A stretch of 64,000 nucleotides of DNA from a virus. Its lineage: Duplodnaviria; Heunggongvirae; Uroviricota; Caudoviricetes. The position numbers were made by a program, and so were the translations under genes. A model generated the notes under the pieces. It searched no databases and was not told where the DNA came from. It saw only the letters and a program-made list of their open reading frames with translations. Positions 13,701 through 53,332 of the stretch are shown here, piece by piece. The DNA is taken from the IMG/VR virus record IMGVR_UViG_2713896909_000009, positions 1-64,000 of that record; one strand, 5' to 3'. Each line of letters starts with the position of its first letter. Within the stretch, counting starts at the first letter, position 1.

Positions 13701-14497
13701 ATAAAGACGAGATCAAGCAGGCAATGGACGCAGCAAGTGCGCGCATTGCAGCAGAACGGAAAGCCAATCTGAATCATGCAGTCGCCGCGCTGACTCAATC
13801 GTGGGTAACAGCAATCAGGGAGGCCGCCACCACAGGAAAAATCACACCGGCAATTGCGGATGTCGTAAACGACGGCTCTAAATTTATGGATGCCTATAAA
13901 ATGGATGCGGTGCAGTTGCCATCAGCCTATGGCCAACTCAGCTATCGCATGACCTACAACCTGGTATCAATGTTTACTGACCTTGCCATCCTTGGGCTGG
14001 TGGATCTTAACGAGGTTACGCCGGAATTGCTCAGCATGCGCAAGAATCATGTGGAGATATTGCAGAGAATTAACACTGTTCTTGCCGGGCGCACCGATGA
14101 AGAGAAACAGGCCGACGCTGATCGGATAAACCTGGCCCTTGGCAACATCACGGAGGAAGAAATTGCCGCCAGAAACGAGAAACAAGAAGAGTTATCATCA
14201 ATACAGGGTGATGCCACCAGCATAGCTCAGTCTCTTGGTCTGAATTATCGCGTATCCACTGCCGACCTGAAGATGATGTACGCACCAAAATTCGCCTCTG
14301 GCGAGGTATTTGGGCTTCAGGAGGCGTCCGGCATGAAAGGTGTCCTTTTCCGTGCTAAAGACGCAATCAAGGTGAAATTCGGCGCTCGCTGGCTGCCAGC
14401 GAAGGCGAAGAACAGCGATTTCCCGGGTAACTGGTGGATTATCGAGACAAAACACAACGTGGCGGACGTTCTGGCCGTCATCCAACAATACGCATAA
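7730..14497 (+). CDS. darB: DarB antirestriction protein (N6-adenine methyltransferase fused to SF2 helicase)
   Basis: 2255 aa; SAM motif 'LEPSAGTGVF', 'NVPFG' (NPPF-like), Walker A 'GTGLGKTT', 'VDEGHNYRN', 'QRNGRGARVGS'. Confidence 0.9.
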   Translation: MNKLSMGVFRCSSVSEILKYISAITSHRAPIRYGVEKVEGKSYDRLRREANQKAIDLLNSLVDGATLTDEQRQILAGYTGEGGIGGSVSEYYTPKPIAEGVWEIMKLYGADVGNTLEPSAGTGVFNETKPVGTVMTATEISSVSGRINQLLHPEDSVQISPFEQLAVSTPNDSFDHVVGNVPFGGRDNTRNIDKPYAEETDMGSYFMLRMLDKIKPGGFMCVIVPPSIVSGSNMKRLRLRLSRKAEFLGAHRLPTGTFDANGTSTVVDVVLMRKHPAEMAEKIPLVDESTLESANVLWPTFISGKWFEKDGRRFVHGTQEKGFQGRIEVRADGQIDNQALKAKLIHRFESRIDWSLLNMAEPSPTADVVDEGEMRLINGVWQKYAGGRWIESDAGKELKIDVASYGADSWEALQRNLTTTEGRLGMTFTQMANVRDKYTTSISDDMVQLVDWINSQPEKYRERLYRGAMIGRMLIEYQDMKAAGHSAEQIEQQRLSLVSRLQAEIDRFGNPGRGPIAKLSGSGARAWFAFRGAIKLDGTISDELTGKLVTHDSSASYDSTSYQDTLRYLYSDLTRDPIQLDDFRLAFTGELPASDDELLNLLASTPGIAVSPYGGIVPFARATSGDINEIVAPKQEFLATLPDGPVKNNVLNQLAAIEEKRIKTPAENIRFKLNSRWFDRSVILEFLQENGYPDLRYVQSVQLEGDEMVSDTYHGGDGLFVGHRYGVVQRKDKETGEIRYEWDRKSGENATGFPAQLEKYLNGARIGGKDSATANGYREQMALLEDQFNKWIKTHDRYDELVAKYNDVFNSNIPYEHSGDPLGLKGLSGKRQPFDYQNSEVRRLSEDGRGILGFGTGLGKTTTALALEAFNYENGRSTRTAYVVPKSVLENWYYEAKEFLSEEAFSNYLFVGLDVLMDGDQIRQVPVLDENGKPVLGTDGTPLMRDALKLADEATITARMNAIPHSNYRAVVLTKEQYFRLPLRDETVDEHAQDMLLDFVAAGRVASAMDSDSHRKEAARRRILSEYSDTGTEKSDKYPYFEDMGFDSVIVDEGHNYRNSYKNGREASQLAYLPTSAVAQSARDMAIKNAYLMKKNGGRGPVLLTATPVVNTPIDAYNMLSHVLPKEYWQKMGIYSPDDFVKFFGKTRLETVQKISGEVEEKMALVGFENLDALRGIFHRWVTLKTAEDVKDTVEIPELDEHQQDAPLTEEQLAAYEELRQQAEAAAKANNGVTSSVNEDGVIEHEKARPIFSIIRDMDRVCTDMDLYYRRITYRFLPEYADAVQQLADSLPKQATSEDDDSDDSITQQSQYSLIDKGEFIQLQVPEAFEQEVNKRLARFGIDEQTVTHPVMPKYAKLIATLKEFFPEGKQIIFTDEKTQHQKLKRIICNALNLEPSKVGILNAQTVAEAGKTGKKLKAVKPPKELPDEPTDAQIAKYNEQMALYDAYIAQQNEMSLGGLEKIAADFQEGRTPIIICNKKAEVGINLHRGTTDIHHLTLPWTPASIAQRNGRGARVGSNRASVRVHYYCGKGSFDEYRLKTLKRKAGWISDILRSDKSEMENADANDMIEMQMYTAKDDGERLAMMQVQMDKAKAAQRARQKEQATIDLQNYIKAQHAAGEDVEVLTAELERSKAELEKTTADVDKFKQAAMAKAADNADWKARWGSVHHTDRMLLAQYRASLKSAIQRKANISQAISRYEKLLNRTQKAATDIKRLRPLVEDAINKGILDVDPDLVNHASEFLVIGDRSWRVGQYYDCAGDIVRIKSLDFDSQRADVEIIFTFKGTKSGNWDVKTLDKQVDVTPDEDAVMQKISGGVSIAGINDIISCDDFYRFQQRGMIKITDSYGVQTTESGYSIDFVGTYTDPLKHAVYPDRRDGALKSSIAKWVLGMMSEGNNRQIRSAETFLVELFGSNYGDVIASYGDTLSPEAIQEKIADAIARMPEKTNQGATRNGDSELEVTNAIFGTNEFRASDYEITTAQFGTIGIYSNKDEIKQAMDAASARIAAERKANLNHAVAALTQSWVTAIREAATTGKITPAIADVVNDGSKFMDAYKMDAVQLPSAYGQLSYRMTYNLVSMFTDLAILGLVDLNEVTPELLSMRKNHVEILQRINTVLAGRTDEEKQADADRINLALGNITEEEIAARNEKQEELSSIQGDATSIAQSLGLNYRVSTADLKMMYAPKFASGEVFGLQEASGMKGVLFRAKDAIKVKFGARWLPAKAKNSDFPGNWWIIETKHNVADVLAVIQQYA

Positions 14498-45331: not shown

Positions 45332-46701
45332 TAATAATCCTCTTGCCAGTCAGCACCGGCATAGTTATCAAACCGTGAGTATTGGCCGTTAAAAGCCAAT
45401 CTCACCGTGCCAATTGGGCCATTTCGTTGCTTACCAATAATCACCTCGGCAATGCCCTTCATTTCGCTATCCGGGTGATAAACCTCGTCGCGATACAGAA
45501 ACATGATCAGGTCTGCGTCCTGTTCAATTGCTCCAGATTCACGCAAATCTGAATTTACCGGTCGTTTGTCCGCACGCTGTTCAAGCGAGCGATTAAGTTG
45601 TGACAATGCCACCACCGGTACTTGTAATTCCTTCGCCAACGCCTTAAGTGAGCGAGAAATCTCGGCAATTTCCAGCGTTCGGTTGTCTTGCAGCTCGGGG
45701 ACGCGCATAAGTTGCAGGTAGTCGATCATGATCATGCTCAATCCGCCATTTTCTTTATAAACACGACGAGCGCGGGAACGAAGCTCTGTAGGTGTCAGGG
45801 CGCTTGAGTCATCAATAAAAATATTCTGCTTGTCCAACAGAATCCCCATTGCGCCAGAAACCCGCGCCCAATCCTCGTCGTTAAGTTGCCCAGTTCTAAT
45901 ACGAGTCTGATCAACACGTGCAAGAGAGGCCAGTGAGCGCATCATCAGCTGGTGGCTTGGCATCTCAAGGCTAAAAACCAATACAGGCTTATCGCTACGG
46001 ACTGCGGCATTTTCGACAAGATTCATCGCAAACGTGGTCTTTCCCATAGATGGGCGGGCGGCGACAATAATGAGATCGGATGGCTGAAGCCCTGCCGTCT
46101 TCTTATTGAGATCGGTAAATCCGGTATCAAGCCCCGTTACACCATCATGCGGTCGCTGAAACAACTCTTCTATGCGAGATACCGTTGCATCGAGAATGCT
46201 GGCGATATCTTTTGGACCACTACCGCTCTTTTGTCGTTTTTCAGCTATTTCAAAAACGCGGCGCTCGGCCATATCCAGCAATTCATTGCTGCTCCGGCCA
46301 TCTTGCGCATATCCAGCTTCGGCTATTTCATTTGCGACGGAAATCATTTCACGAACAACCGCGCGTTCACGAACGATATCCGCATAAGCACAAATATTTG
46401 CCGCGCTGGGCGTGTTCTTTGACATCTCCGCAAGGTAAGCAAAACCACCGGCGCGTTCTAATTTACCGTTCTGTTCAAGTGCTTCAGCAAGTGTTATCAA
46501 ATCAATCGGTTTGCCATGACTTAATAACCTCTCCATCTCACTGAAAATTTCACGATGAGCACTGGTATAAAAATCATCAGCAACTATACGATCTGCAACT
46601 TCATCCCAGCGGCAGTTATCAAGCATTAAGCCACCAAGCACAGCTTGTTCTGCACTAAGGGAATTTGGCATGGATTCAAGAGGGGATGCAGACATTAACA
46701 C
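45331..46701 (-). CDS. ban: DnaB-family replicative helicase
   Basis: 456 aa; Walker A 'ARPSMGKTTFAMN', 'IMIDYLQLM', DnaB N-terminal domain. Confidence 0.9.
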   Translation of the reverse strand: MLMSASPLESMPNSLSAEQAVLGGLMLDNCRWDEVADRIVADDFYTSAHREIFSEMERLLSHGKPIDLITLAEALEQNGKLERAGGFAYLAEMSKNTPSAANICAYADIVRERAVVREMISVANEIAEAGYAQDGRSSNELLDMAERRVFEIAEKRQKSGSGPKDIASILDATVSRIEELFQRPHDGVTGLDTGFTDLNKKTAGLQPSDLIIVAARPSMGKTTFAMNLVENAAVRSDKPVLVFSLEMPSHQLMMRSLASLARVDQTRIRTGQLNDEDWARVSGAMGILLDKQNIFIDDSSALTPTELRSRARRVYKENGGLSMIMIDYLQLMRVPELQDNRTLEIAEISRSLKALAKELQVPVVALSQLNRSLEQRADKRPVNSDLRESGAIEQDADLIMFLYRDEVYHPDSEMKGIAEVIIGKQRNGPIGTVRLAFNGQYSRFDNYAGADWQEDY

Positions 46702-46980
46702 TCCACCCTAGTGTGCTGAATGTCAGATATAGTCGGCATACTCAAATCACTCCTAACGATATGAGTCATCACCAGAAAATCAGGATTAATGCGCCGGACT
46801 CTTCCCGGCTGTCACACCGAATCGCCAGGGTGGTGAGTCCCTGAATCCGCTATCCTACCAACGGTGACTTGCACATTCCGGCTACCTGGTTTGTTGCCTG
46901 AGCTAGGGGAAAAGGCAACCCCTTTAACGTCACCAGACCGCTAACGACGCATGTGCCAGACGCCGTGTTACAACCAAATA

Positions 46981-47056
46981 TGGTGGCCCCTACCGGACTC
47001 GAACCGGTGACCGTGCGATTATGAGTCGCCAGCTCTAACCACTGAGCTAAAGGGCC
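46981..47056 (-). tRNA. tRNA-Ile2-like (anticodon CAT, ileX-type)
   Basis: 76 nt 'GGCCCTTTAGCTCAGTGGTTAGAGCTGGCGACTCATAATCGCACGGTCACCGGTTCGAGTCCGGTAGGGGCCACCA'; near-identical framework to E. coli ileX; CCA encoded. Confidence 0.8.
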
Positions 47057-47059
47057 GGA

Positions 47060-47167
47060 TTACTGTTTACTAAGTGCTTCAATGGCGCTAACAATGCCGC
47101 CTACAACTATGGCAACAATGATAATAAGAACAATTGGATACTTGTCAGCAAAATCCCAGAAGCCCAT
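47060..47167 (-). CDS. 35-aa hydrophobic peptide
   Basis: 'MGFWDFADKYPIVLIIIVAIVVGGIVSAIEALSKQ'; ATG overlaps the upstream stop (TGATG). Confidence 0.3.
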   Translation of the reverse strand: MGFWDFADKYPIVLIIIVAIVVGGIVSAIEALSKQ

Positions 47168-47331
47168 CACTGATCCTTCGAAGCTGTTTTAAATATCGGC
47201 CATACCAATGTTACAGCCACTGCCACCAACGCCCCGTCCGATAAAACTGACAGGATTGTGCTGGTGAAATCCACCAGCACGGACAGCAAGAGAAAACCAA
47301 TGGCGATTGCGATACGTGCCTTGCTTGCCAT
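47167..47331 (-). CDS. 54-aa membrane protein
   Basis: 'MASKARIAIAIGFLLLSVLVDFTSTILSVLSDGALVAVAVTLVWPIFKTASKDQ'; ATG overlaps the TerB-like gene stop (TAATG). Confidence 0.3.
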   Translation of the reverse strand: MASKARIAIAIGFLLLSVLVDFTSTILSVLSDGALVAVAVTLVWPIFKTASKDQ

Positions 47332-47765
47332 TACAGATAATCTTCCACACGAAGACCTAAACGACGGCCTACTTCTTCCAGTACTTTGTGTTCTGCTGGC
47401 TCGATTTCACCGTCCGCTTCTGCAATCGTCAGCATGTTAACGAATACTTCTTCCGCTTCTTTTGGGTCGTTTTTGATATCTTCAATTTCGCGAAGGATAT
47501 TCATGCGACCAACACGGAAGCCAGCTTCCAGTTGCTCGGTAAAGCGGGTAATTGTTGCGGTAATTTCGTTACCAAAATGACTAAGACGCGGATTAGAGCG
47601 GATAAGCTGATCAAGTTTCGCTGTTTCTTCTTTTTCGATTTCACCATCAGCGGCAGACACCAACAAACAGCCACCGATAATGGCCTCCATCAGATCGCGA
47701 TTCTCAACTTTTTTCAGCTCTACTTTTGCAGAAGCGACTTTCTTGCCGAACAATTTACCGAACAT
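47331..47765 (-). CDS. tciA: TerB-family protein (P1 TciA-like)
   Basis: 144 aa; two 'ADGEIE' repeats ('AADGEIEKEE', 'EADGEIEPAE'). Confidence 0.65.
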   Translation of the reverse strand: MFGKLFGKKVASAKVELKKVENRDLMEAIIGGCLLVSAADGEIEKEETAKLDQLIRSNPRLSHFGNEITATITRFTEQLEAGFRVGRMNILREIEDIKNDPKEAEEVFVNMLTIAEADGEIEPAEHKVLEEVGRRLGLRVEDYL

Positions 47766-48054
47766 TGGTTATCCCTCAATAAAAGTGACATATTTATTAG
47801 ATTGCGGTGCCGGGTGCCTCCCGGTGACGTTAACCAGTTAACAATTAACGCCGGAATGTTTAATCATCAAGGAGGATTGTTTTAACTGTTCCGCGTGCGC
47901 TTAGCCGCATTCACCACAACGGAAAGAGCATTTATGGCTCGCATCGCGGGAAAAAGCCCACGGTAGAGAGTCGAACTCTACAAATACTCTTACCTGTTGT
48001 GTGCTCCGTTTCGTGGAGCTAACGGCGGAGTAATCATCCGCCTCAAATTTATAA

Positions 48055-48468
48055 TTAACTGCTTGCTGATGGGTCATATTCGGTTAATTTAATCAACCGC
48101 GAATCAAGAGCTTTTCGATACTCAATCATGCTTTCGAGCTGATTTTGTAATTCCAACTGATTGTCCAAGCCCATGGCGAGGAAGTTATCTGTTCCGATAA
48201 ATCGAACTAGCTTATTTATGCGCTGGCACAGCTGAGCACGTTCGATAATCATTCGCTTGTGGTATTCTTCCAGACCATCAATTTTGCCCAACGGAGCTGC
48301 TATTTCATTAAATTCACGAAGTGGTATTTTTAGTTCGTTACCGAACACATCTACAACATCAATTTCAGATGCATTTTCTTTCGAAACTTTATCGACCTGA
48401 TAACTGGTGCTAACCACTAAAGAAATAACAAACTGCTCTTTCTGCATAATTACCGTTCTCGCACTCAT
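48055..48468 (-). CDS. hypothetical protein inside the tRNA/repeat region
   Basis: 137-aa AT-rich ORF; no motif recognised. Confidence 0.4.
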   Translation of the reverse strand: MSARTVIMQKEQFVISLVVSTSYQVDKVSKENASEIDVVDVFGNELKIPLREFNEIAAPLGKIDGLEEYHKRMIIERAQLCQRINKLVRFIGTDNFLAMGLDNQLELQNQLESMIEYRKALDSRLIKLTEYDPSASS

Positions 48469-49155
48469 TGGTGACAGTTTCTAAATAAATTGTGGTGGTC
48501 GGCGCTGATCTCCGACTGCGCCTCTTTTTGTTCATAACCCATAAGGCCGGTCAGTGCGCTTGATGACTGAGGCATCGATATTTACTACGCCGCCTCGTTG
48601 CCATAGGGCGGACTTGCGCGCCAGCAACACGCATTCACCACAATGTTGAGAACACTGGTTGTCACGCGGCAACGCAACATTTATTCATAGGTTGGGAAAT
48701 GAACCCGTTACGCCAATGTTCTCAACGTTGTAGTGCCGGTTACGGTTCCGGCCAGGCCTCTTCCTCAACGGGGTGTTCTCCGTACGGACTACCGTTTATT
48801 GGTCGTTCCTGCGGTTTATGTTGTGAAGCCAGATGCTTATCTTCTGGTTGCTTCAAAGAGCTGCACTTCATCACAACGGTAAGAGCACTCGATGCATTTA
48901 AGCCAAGCCCCATAAGGGAGAATGCCCTTACCTGTTGTGTTGTGATGACCGGTGCTGATCTCCGGCTTGCGGTTATTTCAGACTCTCACGGGCGTTTAAT
49001 TGCCCCGCCGGACAGCTCTTTTCCGCAATAGCTGCAATGTCTTTCGCGCATCAGCCTGCGCATTCATCACAACGGTAAGGGTACTTCGTAGGGATTCGAA
49101 CCCTCTGCCAAGCTCGGCGATCTCCGACGTCGCAAAATACCCTTACCTGTTGTGC

Positions 49156-49288
49156 TGGTGCCGGTTAACGGATTCGAACCGCTGACCTCTGGCCTAACAT
49201 CGAATCGTTGTCATTTGACCAGCAAGGCTGTCTACCGAAGTAGAAACGATGCTTTGGCTCTCGTGCTCTCCCACTGAGCTAAACCGGC
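49156..49288 (-). ncRNA. atypical 133-nt tRNA-like element
   Basis: 5' 'GCCGGTT TA GCTC AGTGGGA GAGC' and 3' 'AGCGG TTCGAAT CCGTT AACCGGC A CCA' with perfect 7-bp acceptor pairing, separated by about 83 nt with a UUCG hairpin and no canonical anticodon arm. Confidence 0.35.
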
Positions 49289-49290
49289 AT

Positions 49291-49366
49291 TGGCGATGGT
49301 GGGTGGATTCGAACCACCGACCAGTTAGTTAACAGCCAACTGCTCTAACCGCTGAGCTACACCATC
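49291..49366 (-). tRNA. tRNA-Asn (anticodon GTT)
   Basis: 76 nt 'GATGGTGTAGCTCAGCGGTTAGAGCAGTTGGCTGTTAACTAACTGGTCGGTGGTTCGAATCCACCCACCATCGCCA'; canonical cloverleaf. Confidence 0.8.
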
Positions 49367-50036
49367 ACTTGCCGGGTACGTCTCCGGCGAGGGCTTCCAC
49401 CTCCGTATGCTTTTCGGCGCACCGCGCCCTGGCTGCAATTCGGTAACAGGGGATGCATAACCCTGGCTTCCAGCGTGATTAGCGCTTTCAGCATGACGGG
49501 ATATACCCGTAAATTCGTGGAACTGTACCCAAAGTGCTGTTAAGCACCGCTGTTACGCTGAAAAGAAGACGCAACAGGAAAGGACGCTGACCAACAGATG
49601 GCCCCTTCTCGTTCATCTGGTTAATCACACCAGCGCCCTTACCTGTTGTGCCTCCCCGTTCCCTAATACACAGACGGGGACACTCTGCGGTCGATTTTTT
49701 GACGGGGGACGACTCATACCCCGTGGCGTCTGGCTTCTTAGGCCGCAGCCATCATCAGATCATCGTTTGCATTTACTTTAATGGTCAGTTTCTAAACCGC
49801 CGCAAAGTCGCTAACCATGACGAAAACCCTGAAAAAACGCCCACCCGAAGATGGGCAAACAGGATGTAAGCTCGTTACGCATTTCGGTATTGCCACTTAG
49901 GCGTATGGTCAACCTGGCAACTCGGCGTCATGAGGGGGAAGGAGTCACTACCCCGCCATACTTGCCGCCGCGCCTGTCGCGGCTAACAGCTAAATCGCTC
50001 TATAAATCACGATTCATTGAAACCATATTACACTAA

Positions 50037-50053
50037 TGAATTTATTAGAGCAA
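50037..50053. promoter_or_regulatory. C1 operator-like site overlapping the dmt stop codon
   Basis: 'gaatttattagagcaat' (reverse complement ATTGCTCTAATAAATTC). Confidence 0.5.
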
Positions 50054-53000
50054 TATAGCAATAACGTCATGAGCTACACCACGAGTGTTCCCCTTACAAG
50101 ACACAGAACGTCTGGCAAAAAGAGGTTCCACTCTGAAGCCACTGTCTTGGTAAAGCTCCCTGATGTTTGGCGCACCACTATTAGTAATGAGGATCTTTGC
50201 ACCTCGGCGATGAGCATCCATTAGCAGAGATACCAGGCGTTTTTGCTCTTCAAACTTAAAGTCATGACCGGAATAGTTTGTGAACCCCTCTGTATTGGGG
50301 AGCGGTTCATACGGAGGATCGCAAAAGATGACATCTCCTTCTCCGGCAGCTTCAATCACCGCTGAAAAATCACCACATACAAACTCAGAACGCCCTTCAG
50401 CACCGAGGAAGGCTTCCATCTCCTGTAATGGGAAATACGGAGTTTTATACTTCCCATAACCAACATTAAACTCACCGGCCTGGTTGTAACGCGTCAATCC
50501 GTTAAAACAATGTCGGTTCAGGAACAAAAACGCTGCTGCACGATGTAAATCATCATAGGCTTGTTTGTTAAACGCATTCCGTACTGCCAGGTATCCTTCC
50601 TGTGTGTTGTAGTCCTGGAAAAACCGATGCGCCAGAGTGATAAGTGAATGTCCCTCACGTTGCAGAGTCCTGTAAAAGTTAATCAGGTCAGCATTCACAT
50701 CATTTAGCAGATTTTCTTGATATCCGGCATTTATGAAAACAGCTCCGCCACCAACGAAAGGCTCGATCAGGCGCTTTCCGTCAGGTAAATGCCTAAAGAT
50801 TTGTTCAAGAACACCAAATTTTCCGCCGACCCATTTAAATATGGGACGGTCAAATTCTGCCGTTAGCTTAACTCTCCGTTCTGTTGCTTCATGATTTTTT
50901 GCCTGCTGATATGCAGCCTTAATAATCCGCTCACCAATCCATCGCATTACTGGTATCGCCATGCTATTGCCGATCGCTTTGTAACGCGGTCCGTCAGCTG
51001 CAAGCATCGCGGCCTCTTCTTCGCTTAAATCTGGATAGTGATTGCGAAGGTATGCCAGTTCATCTGAAGTAACTTTTTTACGCTTTTCCGTCGGGATCAA
51101 CGTATGCCCATCAGGAAAACCTTGCAGTCTTTCACATTCGACAGGGGTAAGACGGCGGACAGCTACTGCTGCGTTTCCTACGTCATAGCAAACGGCTGTT
51201 GTATTTTTGGCCATTAAAGATGGTGAAGTATTCTTAGTTGCAGCATGTTGTGTACCGCTCATACGTTCAGGAAAAGCCAATGTAACAAGATGCTCATGGC
51301 TTTCTTGCTCACGTGCCCGCAATGTACCATGCCCTTCTGACCAAAAACCTGCTCCTGTGCTGCTAAAAACTGCAAGGTCAGTGGCATCTTTAAAGTCTCT
51401 CGCCTTTACTGTCGATGCGGTTTCATCGCCAATATATTCCCCAAATGCCGCCATCCTGAAAGCGTTTACGGCTTTCGTCGATTTCATACCGGGGGTAATG
51501 TCAGCGTGTAGGCATGGATTTAGGCTTTCGCCACTGATTGCAGCGCCATTTGCAATAATGGCGGAAGCGATTTCCTTCTTTTTTCGGCTCGGCGCAATAT
51601 TCCGGCGCACGCCTTCGAACTCAAAAAGTACCGTTGCGGGATCGAGGTCTGTTCGAGCACTTGCGACAACAAACACACGTCGGCGTCGTTGTGCCACTCC
51701 GAAGTATTGGGCATCAAGGATTCTCCAGGCCACCTTTCGCTGCGGTCCATAAATACAACCACACTGCGGCCACTTTGGAGCATGGCAACCGGTTTTGCCA
51801 TCCCACCGCCAGAACGCGTTACTTTTTCCTGATTCAGGTCGATCACCTGGTTCAAATGGCGCATCTTCTCCAGCCAATCCGGCAAGGAAACATCCGAAGG
51901 CGTTATCTGCCGATGACAAGACTCCTGGGACATTTTCCCAGACGATAACGGCTGGTTTGAGAAATGACTCAGCCCGTTTGTCGTCAATTGCATTTGCAAG
52001 CTCCACATACTTTAAAGTTAGCGCGCCACGCTCATCATCAAGCCCACCACGTAATCCCGCGATACTGAATGCCTGACAGTTATGGACCACCGCACCATTG
52101 AGGATATAGGAATGATCACCTTCGACTTCTATGTTGTATACAGTATCTAGGCCTACCGATTTAAACTCTTTGACTGTTCGTAAAAGCATTCCATGAGCCA
52201 ATCTTGATTTACGTGACAATTTCTGCGGGCAGATTGTTACCTGATAATAATTCCGTTGATTTACCACGCGATCCTCGATCACTTTTTTGGGCTCAACTTC
52301 AATAAAGCTGACCGAAGAAACATAACCACAAGTCTGTGACACCCCCGCAACGCCCCAAGCAAGCGCAGGACTAACACTATTAATTCTAAATCCCGCTTTA
52401 CCACTTGGTGTCCCATCAGTATCAAGATAGCCTTGTAAAAACACATGACGCAATGGATGCGACATCACCCATGCAGGGATACGCTTAGCATGGCTTAACT
52501 CGCCAAAATGTTCATTAAGCCAATTGGCATAACACGTATCATTCAAGGTTACTTTGATGCTCCCTCGGATTTCTCTTGCCACGGAAAATATGTTTTCTGG
52601 TATGCGACAATGAAACTTTCTCAATTTCTGGCAATTTATGCAAAAAACAACCGCCTTCTTAGATTTACCTCTCCATCTCCTAATATATCCATCGCCAACA
52701 TAAGCGCCCGCAAGATACATAGCCTGTTCTTCAGACAAGAACCGAGAACAAATATCTGGAGATGCAATATTGAAATTAGTTAGAGCGCACCATTGATATC
52801 CTGGCATATCACATGCTGCTCGCCATTCCGGTTCAGACAACAACTCTCTCTTAAAATATGTGCCATTTTTCCGGGTGTTTTGGGCTTTCCACCGAACAGC
52901 CAGGAAGGGATGGTCATTGGTTGTTCTTATACCTAAAGGCTGCCCAACGGCATTAAGTAACCCCGTATTAGCTATTTTTGAACCAACTCTTTTTACTTGT

Positions 53001-53332
53001 TGTAACCGCCCGAGATGACTGACTACGTAATCGCCAGGGCAAACATCTTCTATTGGTTTATAACCATTTTTACAAAGAACCATATGCCCCGCGGTAAAAC
53101 ATGGTGTTCCCCCGACGAGCACGTCAGGGGATTCTATTTCCCCAGCCAGGACTTTTTTGGCAAGTTTAGTCATGTCGCCAAGGTTGGCGACATGGGGCCA
53201 GCGGTGCGCAAGAACGGCCGATGGAAAAGACTCGATTTCAGCAAACCACGCCGGACGCATACCCAACGGTTCCCAGGCAATACTCGCGGCTTCAATTCCA
53301 CTGCAAACAGATCCATAGCACAGCTCTTTCAC
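50045..53332 (-). CDS. dmt: Dmt bifunctional DNA methyltransferase (N-terminal C5-cytosine, C-terminal Dam-like) interrupted by an intein
   Basis: 1095 aa; C5 motifs '[12 protein letters not shown]', 'WENVPG', 'QRRRRVF', '[13 protein letters not shown]'; Dam motifs 'FKWVGGK', 'DPPY'; 754 aa after removing the 341-aa intein. Confidence 0.9.
52079..53101 (-). other. intein with LAGLIDADG homing-endonuclease domain inside dmt
   Basis: ORF residues 78-418: Cys1 'CFTAGHMVL', block B 'TTNDHPF', 'LAGAYVGDG' and 'LQGYLDTDG', C-terminal '[17 protein letters not shown]' followed by Cys+1; coordinates by arithmetic from the ORF start. Confidence 0.85.

Follow-up and report, generated by a model that had tools for sequence, protein, structure and literature searches.

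Organisation of the tciA-dmt interval

We analysed a stretch of Caudoviricetes DNA of 64,000 nucleotides (nt), positions 1 to 64,000 of IMG/VR record IMGVR_UViG_2713896909_000009 and hereafter called the window, and within it a family of inverted repeats, hairpins U1 to U5, which are confined to the interval between tciA (47331-47765), whose product has a TerB domain, and dmt (50045-53332). The window is 100% identical to the Escherichia albertii plasmid NZ_CP117630.1 (95,979 base pairs, bp), and its tciA-dmt region shows piecewise 92-98% identity to P1, P7, D6 and their relatives. According to the P1 annotation, the same interval in P1 is the leader of the C1-repressed ban operon, in which Pban with its C1 operator, a 'dicF-like region', tRNA-Asn, tRNA-Thr, tciABC, tRNA-Ile and ban follow one another on one strand. 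In the window this is the minus strand. A C1 operator-like sequence lies at 50040-50054, and 3' of Pban and the operator, at the position of the P1 'dicF-like region', the minus strand carries a terminator-like hairpin (49838-49861). The minus strand also carries tRNA-Asn (GUU; 49291-49366; called by ARAGORN and scoring 71.7 bits with the Rfam tRNA model) and tRNA-Met/Ile(CAU) (46981-47056; ARAGORN).

Read along the transcript, the order is Pban, the dicF-like region, U5, tRNA-Asn, a tRNA-Thr-like gene, U4, S-A, U3, a short spacer, U2, S-B, ORF137 (an open reading frame, ORF, of 137 amino acids), a small hairpin, U1, S-C and tciA, where S-A, S-B and S-C are structured modules that alternate with the long hairpins. 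An earlier reading of the window, made from the sequence only, had placed the repeats on a probable polycistronic minus-strand transcript together with the tRNAs, and the locus bears this out: Pban with the C1 operator, tRNA-Asn, the tRNA-Thr-like gene, tciA, tRNA-Ile and ban are all on the minus strand.

Five hairpins with conserved arms

The sequence-only reading had described at least four units that share complementary arms. The arms are indeed over-represented where it had placed them. The right arm, CCTTACCTGTTGTG, has five matches with at most two mismatches in the 64 kb against 0.24 expected, a number reached in 0 of 100 shuffles; the left arm has five matches with at most three mismatches against 0.54 expected, four of them in the hairpin region and the fifth, with three mismatches, outside it at 13747-13763. 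The count needed revision. A covariance model (R1), built from 35 relatives and two of the window units and run with filters off, found five copies and no more in the 64 kb. They all lie between tciA and dmt on the minus strand, where they score 48-62 bits, as against 30-40 bits on the plus strand; the minus-strand advantage is 11-22 bits. The count of four had overlooked the partner (49570-49583) of the arm at 49637, and also the divergent unit U2.

The first hairpin on the transcript is U5 (49570-49650; R1 48.0 bits; folding z-score -6.4), which lies upstream of tRNA-Asn, has the 3' arm CCUUUCCUGUUGCG and is conserved in P1, P7, D6 and Ro157c2. U4 (49068-49154; 55.5 bits) begins 2 nt past the CCA of the tRNA-Thr-like gene, and is followed by U3 (48872-48939; 60.5 bits; z-score -5.8), by U2 (48639-48732; 55.1 bits), an inverted repeat with the divergent arms UACAACGUUGAGAAC.../...GUUCUCAACAUUGUG, and by U1 (47915-48001; 61.6 bits; basal helix of about 26 bp). 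The basal stem follows a common plan of 6 bp, usually a bulged A, and about 13 bp, below a variable tip of 30-55 nt. This gives a near-continuous helix of 16-26 bp depending on the unit: 19-26 bp in U1-U4, and in U5 16 bp (7+9) in two segments below an internal loop. Directly 5' of U1 lies a small minus-strand hairpin, GCUCC-ACGAAAC-GGAGC (48003-48019), and the same small hairpin also precedes long hairpins in P1, Ro157c2 and several viral contigs.

Scans of the minus strand from 47300 to 50200 found no promoter-like sites, and the terminator sites found there were 49863-49838 (two overlapping calls) and a weak one at 47685-47669 inside tciA. None of the five hairpins is followed by a U-tract; GUGAAUGCG follows the 3' arms instead. 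The hairpins are therefore not terminators but lie inside a longer transcript. Intrinsic termination was rejected on a second count as well, in that the minus-strand terminator calls coincide with no long hairpin.

The repeats are a structure of the RNA

Relatives were gathered by scanning viral contigs for the most conserved junction of the family, GTTGTGRTGAATGCG, which gave more than 120 loci. Upstream of this junction the family layout is 5' CACAACAGGUAAGAGCAUU, a variable 25-100 nt and AGUGCUCUUUCCGUUGUG 3', and many arm variants occur that preserve the pairing. The sense fold was more stable than the antisense fold in 38 of 44 distinct units (Wilcoxon p=3e-6), and a strand-neutral alignment of the arm pairs of these 44 units contained 745 Watson-Crick pairs, 60 G.U pairs and 4 A.C pairs. 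When 37 sequences were aligned to a register set out as 6 bp, bulged A and 13 bp, pairing held in 94.6% of the cells, compared with 36-53% when the partner was slid; 11 of the 13 pairs of the inner helix had changes on both sides, with 0 of 500 shuffles reaching the observed values, and a U.U mismatch recurred at one stem position in 20 of the 37 sequences. The covariation evidence is that of the inner helix: the outermost helix (CACAAC/GUUGUG) is biased towards invariance because the pattern used to collect the relatives includes the last six bases of the 3' arm. In the window, the minus-strand fold of each of the five units is better by 3.5-15 kcal/mol, with z-scores of -3.3 to -6.4.

The excess of G.U over A.C pairs, together with the compensatory changes, therefore identifies an RNA structure rather than a DNA repeat, and in the window the repeats are a structure of the minus-strand transcript. 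The mutual complementarity of the arms, which the sequence-only reading had claimed, is likewise upheld, the pairing being held by compensatory changes. In the annotated loci examined, the best-scoring strand was the strand of the neighbouring genes, and the orientation was fixed in every locus examined. A DNA inverted repeat, or an element resembling a miniature inverted-repeat transposable element, was rejected as an identity since it demands strand-symmetric mismatches.

A comparison across P1-like genomes, proposed along with the original description, found the family and showed that it extends well beyond them. R1 has four copies in P1, four in P7 and five in D6, and one to three in SJ46, SSU5-like plasmids, mEp460 and IME207, while the viral contigs contain clusters of one to five hairpins.

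A probable homologue in the Qin prophage and RNase III

R1 also has a copy in Qin, a prophage carried by E. coli K-12, in the gap between ydfC and dicF (NC_000913.3, 1649173-1649256; 9174-9257 of the fetched locus L133), scoring 27.6 bits (E=1e-5) in the sense direction and 17.7 bits on the opposite strand. This site shares with the window units the arm consensus CAUAAC...GGUUGUG and a setting of DicF or DicF-like RNA, an STnc100-like spacer and early-operon genes; indeed, the Qin dicF-dicB spacer is an S module near-identical to S-C and matches the STnc100 model over its full length. It differs in being a single divergent copy in a protein-coding operon (ydfABC), whereas the window, a P1-type phage-plasmid, has five copies among tRNAs and modules resembling small RNAs (sRNAs). 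From this sequence comparison, the ydfC-dicF hairpin is probably a homologue and a member of the family. A comparable series occurs in mEp460, where a hairpin, an S module, a DicF-like terminator and a second hairpin lie downstream of the repressor gene on the strand of the early genes.

The Qin copy lies where RNA processing has been characterised. The 53-nt form of DicF is made by RNase E (bioRxiv 10.1101/2023.04.14.536235), and the same source, confirming Faubladier et al. 1990, describes a 190-nt DicF whose 5' end is made by RNase III and which is lost in an rnc deletion strain. The two forms have their 3' ends at the dicF terminator, which places RNase III cleavage 137 nt upstream of the dicF 5' end (L133 9245/9246), a position computed from the two RNA lengths (190 and 53 nt) with the shared 3' end assumed. 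The computed cut lies within the hairpin's 3' arm, at a base that is paired and 12 nt before the 3' end of that arm. About 22 bp of double-stranded RNA fit into RNase III, which typically cleaves an intramolecular stem on both strands (PMC6212723). The stems of U1-U4 (19-26 bp) are of the size expected from that source (about 20-22 bp), as is that of U5, where the stem continues beyond its 7+9 bp.

The hairpins stand at the joints between tRNA-Asn, the tRNA-Thr-like gene, the STnc100-like modules, the cargo ORF and the tciA mRNA, and the borders are similar elsewhere in the family. Among 79 distinct hairpins, eight start 1-2 nt after a tRNA-like ...CCA (in the window, P1, P7, Ro157c2 and SSU5-like plasmids) and 12 start right after the U-tract of a terminator (a DicF-like sRNA or another terminator hairpin); many of the remainder follow a small GC-rich hairpin, as read from the listed upstream sequences. 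In one viral contig (L056) the hairpin is directly downstream of a match to isrJ.

We judge it reasonably probable that U1-U5 are RNase III processing hairpins that separate the modules of the ban leader. Processing signals were one of the options that the sequence-only reading had offered, alongside degenerate tRNA-like genes and small structured RNAs, and this option is the best supported, given that the probable Qin homologue is cut by RNase III inside a hairpin arm. In the scheme that we propose, host RNase III would bind the basal helix and cut both arms, which would release the tRNA-containing 5' part and free the hairpin tip. The downstream modules and mRNAs would gain new 5'-monophosphate ends, which would determine how stable these RNAs are and how they are translated. 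By homology, the 3'-arm cuts are predicted at 49582/1 in U5, 49080/79 in U4, 48884/3 in U3, 48651/0 in U2 and 47927/6 in U1. We infer both the cleavage of U1-U5 in the window element and its effect on expression.

RNase III signals of T7 and lambda and the stalks of rRNA precursors are long imperfect stems in polycistronic transcripts, at which host RNase III separates functional RNAs. The U-family hairpins resemble the rRNA stalks in that the stem encloses an RNA that is released; they differ from both the stalks and the phage signals in that their stems enclose only 30-55 nt, and in that their arms are conserved across unrelated phage types while the enclosed sequence varies. A host operon provides a further parallel: an RNase III site immediately follows an operon tRNA in the rimP-metY intergenic region (PMC5371410). 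According to the title of Regnier and Grunberg-Manago 1989, which that article cites, the cut in metY-rimP-nusA-infB frees the tRNA and starts decay of the downstream mRNA. The likeness is the site just 3' of a co-transcribed tRNA (compare U4, 2 nt after CCA); the differences are that this is a single site in a host operon with no variable-tip family, and we saw no sequence relationship between the two, none having been tested for.

Several points weigh against the processing interpretation. The RNase III argument rests on one characterised relative. The Qin match is weak (27.6 bits) and the R1 E-values are rough, the position of the Qin cut depends on RNA lengths and an assumed shared 3' end, and the fit to RNase III was judged on helix size. 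The arms, with their bulged A and a U.U mismatch that 20 of 37 sequences share, are more strongly conserved than RNase III needs, and may have another, sequence-specific partner. Finally, the enrichment of tRNA-fragment mimics in the tips, described below, is left unexplained by pure processing.

RNase III sites of the host that punctuate phage and operon transcripts are a known kind of element, and the probable Qin member was characterised in 1990. We found no paper or Rfam entry describing the hairpin family as such; a literature search by sequence strings returned unrelated primer matches only, and a search for P1 transcriptome work returned nothing relevant. What we did not find described is the combination of conserved arms, bulged A, U.U mismatch and variable, partly tRNA-mimicking tips, nor the regular alternation with STnc100-like modules and the spread over P1-like and SSU5-like phage-plasmids and lambdoid phages. 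The family is common to these phage-plasmids, the lambdoid phages and the Qin prophage, is widespread among temperate phages of enterobacteria and has no Rfam model. It offers a simple account of how temperate phages could express tRNAs, small RNAs and accessory genes from one repressor-controlled promoter.

Some hairpin tips resemble fragments of tRNAs

A T-arm mimic had been noticed in one insert by the sequence-only reading, and it is present in the tip of U4 as AGGG-UUCGAAU-CCCU (minus strand, 49090-49104), next to which the tip also holds a small hairpin with a GATC loop (49114-49127). A second T-arm mimic occurs in the tip of U1 (GUAGAG-UUCGACU-CUCUAC, 47963-47981), and the tip of U2 has a variant resembling the anticodon arm of the initiator tRNA (CGGG-UUCAUUU-CCCAACC, 48690-48707). 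When a T-arm-like hairpin was defined as a UUCRANN loop closed by a stem of 4 bp or more, 6 of the 44 tips had one in the sense direction and none in antisense, with 0.14 expected.

A second element, stem/AC/GGG/NYCAUAN/CCC/AAUC/stem, was found in 7-8 of 72 distinct tips against 0.003-0.06 expected. With a stricter pattern, in which the triplet was left free and Y33 and R37 were fixed, the triplet was CAU in all 8 tip hits, and two other such hairpins had CGA. Within the 1.2 Mb of fetched loci there are 56 occurrences of the CAU-loop element, representing 16 distinct versions; examples in relatives are L005 2855-2941 and L001 2441-2519 and 2702-2795. In its flanking helix 5 of 7 pairs covary and 82.5% are paired, compared with at most 48% in slid registers, and there is no variation in the loop, the GGG/CCC stem or the internal loop. 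The mEp460-type tips have 13 nt, GGGCUCAUAACCC, identical to the anticodon arm of a tRNA-Met gene with a median of four copies per E. coli genome, which we take to be the initiator tRNA.

These tips suggest an alternative in which the hairpins mainly carry functional small RNAs, the stem being a scaffold or release device and the tip an active tRNA mimic that acts as a decoy or sponge for tRNA-binding enzymes or for tRNA-cleaving toxins such as VapC. We consider this unlikely as the principal role, although it is compatible with RNase III cutting. In its favour are the strand-specific excess of T-arm-like tips, the CAU element with its covarying helix around an invariant core, and the 13-nt match of the mEp460-type tips to the initiator anticodon arm, which may be set beside the documented cleavage of initiator tRNA by VapC in enterobacteria (PMC5175351) and the use of phage tRNAs as counter-defence (PMC10264068). 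However, most of the 72 distinct tips, including those of U3 and U5, have neither mimic, the mimics could be relics of tRNA genes captured between the arms, and no specific link of these phages to VapC-type or other tRNA-targeting systems emerged. A fuller version, which we offer as a speculation with little weight, is that the stem would serve as a release-and-display scaffold for diversifying tRNA-fragment mimics, whose early expression by temperate phages would provide RNA decoys or sponges against tRNA-targeting toxins (e.g. VapC) or tRNA-handling enzymes, with the 133-nt tRNA-Thr-like gene belonging to the same tool-kit. The tip mimics and this gene, with its replaced anticodon arm, are in any case testable leads on a possible RNA-based interference with tRNA-directed host functions.

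The tips also bear on the suggestion that the units are remnants of decayed tRNA genes, or tRNA pseudogenes, without a role today. The sequence-only reading had listed degenerate tRNA-like genes among its options, and of this claim the enrichment of tRNA-fragment mimics stands, while the status of tRNA gene does not: neither ARAGORN nor the Rfam tRNA model, even at E<=1, called any of the five hairpins a tRNA. We regard decay without a role as very improbable. The location in a tRNA cluster and the canonical T-loops or anticodon-loop-like hairpins of some tips speak for it, but the conserved part of the units is the long basal stem, which tRNAs lack, and compensatory changes hold these stems across distant phages, a pattern not expected of pseudogenes.

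Exchange of cassettes at the arms

When the window is aligned with P1, P7, D6 and Ro157c2, the alignment is interrupted at 47933, 48630, 48734/5, 48889, 48942, 49063 and 49136, all of which are at hairpin arms, and at two further positions, 49189 and 49265, which are the edges of the replaced anticodon arm of the tRNA-Thr-like gene. P1 has the U4 tip where P7 has the U3 tip, at the tRNA-Thr-proximal position, and the window holds both, with S-A between them; the U4 unit is also present in D6. Segments of lambdoid phages (mEp460, IME207 and several Stx phages) match S-A at 97.8% identity, which suggests that P1-like and lambdoid phages exchanged this non-coding module recently; in mEp460 the corresponding segment comes directly after the repressor gene and shares its strand with the early genes next to it. 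The exact arrangement of the window occurs in only 1 of 1,117 matching plasmids.

One could therefore propose that the repeats are primarily DNA-level linkers for swapping modules by recombination and that the RNA hairpin is functionless. Nearly all breakpoints fall at the arms, the rest being the edges of the anticodon-arm replacement, and the exchange of the U3 and U4 tips and the lambdoid identity of S-A fit the same picture. However, a DNA-only element should accumulate mismatches symmetrically on the two strands, whereas there are 60 G.U pairs to 4 A.C pairs, and compensatory changes keep the arms paired, and the orientation to transcription was fixed in every locus examined. The strand asymmetry therefore means that recombination is not the only role of the arms and largely refutes linkage as the sole explanation, which we rate as improbable; it is more plausible that recombination at the arms follows from their conservation. 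As far as the sequences go, the conserved arms do also mark recombination joints, as a side effect at the DNA level, and the family thereby offers an account of cassette swapping between unrelated phages.

Other identities considered

An action on transcription, as terminators or attenuators or as antitermination signals of the nut or put type, seems to us hardly credible. Many hairpins follow terminators, where antitermination would help, and the 3'-arm consensus GUGCUCUUUCC (GCUCUUU) presumably resembles boxA, with a small hairpin 10-15 nt later. However, the stems lack a following U-tract, the boxA-like stretch is base-paired within the 3' arm with a partner that covaries and is not conserved in U2, U4 and U5, and no put-like two-hairpin element was identified, nor any N-like protein, although no search aimed at such a protein was made. 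In a nut site, boxA would be single-stranded and would precede a boxB hairpin to which an N protein binds.

A search of 46000-51000 against Rfam at E<=1 returned two tRNAs, STnc100 and otherwise chance hits only, with no hit beyond chance to the hairpins. Matches to mir-465 (on U5), YrlA, permuted tmRNA (transfer-messenger RNA), Plastid-ycf2 and RefB11 were discarded because they are far below the gathering scores. Integron attC-like sites were set aside by inspection, as the arms lack the RYYYAAC/GTTRRRY cores. Type III antitoxin repeats, retron non-coding RNA and CRISPR-like repeats were rejected by reasoning from the sequence, since the units do not form tandem direct repeats; neither a reverse transcriptase nor a cas gene was seen near the hairpins, although no dedicated search for one was made.

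The S modules and the GATC motif

The S modules, which alternate with the long hairpins, open with UGUGRUGAAUGCG and a small hairpin and close with a small hairpin and YCAYCACA, and this last motif pairs back to the start of the module. S-C (47803-47918, minus) is an STnc100-like leader of tciA. It scores 47.3 bits with Rfam RF02076 over model positions 31-147, just above the gathering score of 47, and it opens with UGUGGUGAAUGCG and closes with CCGGG-AGGCA-CCCGG (47810-47824) followed by CACCGCA. S-B (about 48490-48650, minus), whose fold closes via the end motifs, has the same kind of ends, i.e. UGUGGUGAAUGCG at the start and GUCGG-AGAUCAGCG-CCGAC plus CACCACAA at the end, with the terminal hairpin at 48498-48516. 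S-A (about 48940-49079, minus) opens with UGUGAUGAAUGCGC and closes with CCGG-AGAUCAGCA-CCGG plus UCAUCACAAC, its GATC hairpin being at 48949-48965.

Neither S-A nor S-B matched Rfam at E<=1, and they have only the end motifs in common with S-C; membership of S-B in STnc100 is not established because of this missing match. STnc100 has been described as a prophage-encoded sRNA (bioRxiv 10.64898/2026.05.13.724894). The likeness of the locus to the STnc100 (RF02076)/PasD prophage sRNAs is that S-C reaches the gathering score and that the Qin dicF-dicB spacer matches the full-length model; the difference is that the STnc100 model covers modules between the hairpins, not the long hairpins themselves, its positions 1-30 being an AU-rich leader.

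The sequence-only reading had also pointed out a GATC-containing motif that recurs three times. We find the three copies, at 48498-48516 (S-B), 48949-48965 (S-A) and 49114-49127 (U4 tip), in each case as the loop of a small hairpin of 4-5 bp. The motif does not belong to the long arms: one copy lies in the U4 tip, and the other two are the closing hairpins of S-B and S-A. The terminal hairpins of S-C and of the Qin spacer carry an AGGCA loop, so the GATC itself is not conserved. A role for the motif with Dam or Dmt is unsupported on the same ground, the homologous S-C and Qin hairpins having no GATC.

A tRNA-Thr-like gene with a replaced anticodon arm

The tRNA-Thr-like gene (49156-49288, minus; 133 nt) is annotated by PGAP as 'tRNA-OTHER'. 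It retains an intact acceptor stem, D arm, T arm and CCA, and the 17-nt anticodon arm of the P1 and P7 tRNA-Thr is replaced by about 74 nt that include a UCUAC-UUCG-GUAGA hairpin. Default ARAGORN and the Rfam tRNA model both missed it. The gene is 89-100% conserved in 11 plasmids (P1-like plasmids of E. albertii and SSU5-like plasmids of E. coli and Salmonella) and in phage Jgk1, whose copy has compensatory changes in the acceptor and T stems and a nearly invariant insert. A reading as tmRNA was rejected, as the tmRNA mode of ARAGORN was negative and the acceptor stem lacks G3.U70. An intron-bearing tRNA was also rejected: all that the intron mode of ARAGORN gave was a poor tRNA-Ser(cga), whose 54-nt intron is not at the canonical position and whose anticodon stem has two mismatches.

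Reading frames and spacers of the leader

The 137-amino-acid cargo ORF (48055-48468, minus) lies between S-B and U1. It matches the Pfam crAss001_48-related domain PF21825 (5.6e-12) and phrog_15270 (1.5e-78), both of which are families of unknown function, and the segment around it (47934-48629) has no match in P1, P7, D6 or Ro157c2. A 58-amino-acid ORF (47901-48077, minus) that overlaps U1 has a sub-threshold match to DUF7030 (20.4 bits against a cut-off of 27) and is probably spurious.

Two stretches of the leader are non-coding, conserved with P1, P7 and D6, and without an Rfam match: 49367-49569 (minus), from U5 to tRNA-Asn, and 48733-48871 (minus), from U3 to U2. The latter opens with GUUGUGAUGAAGUGC, with GCUUCACAAC about 45 nt downstream, which suggests that it is another bracketed module.

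P1 is a model phage and laboratory workhorse, and its annotation of this region places upl and plp on the plus strand, over the hairpins (locus L001 2483-3052, plus), with plp overlapping tRNA-Thr. Our results suggest instead that the P1 region is a chain of at least 10 structured RNA modules on the strand opposite upl and plp. Going by the sequence comparison, plp is unlikely to be a genuine gene. It matched nothing in Pfam or PHROG, whereas upl matches PHROG families of unknown function. A plp-like ORF in the window (48699-49031, plus) shares with P1 plp only 64 amino acids, encoded by a DNA segment common to both, and the ends of the plp-like ORF vary with the cassette swaps.

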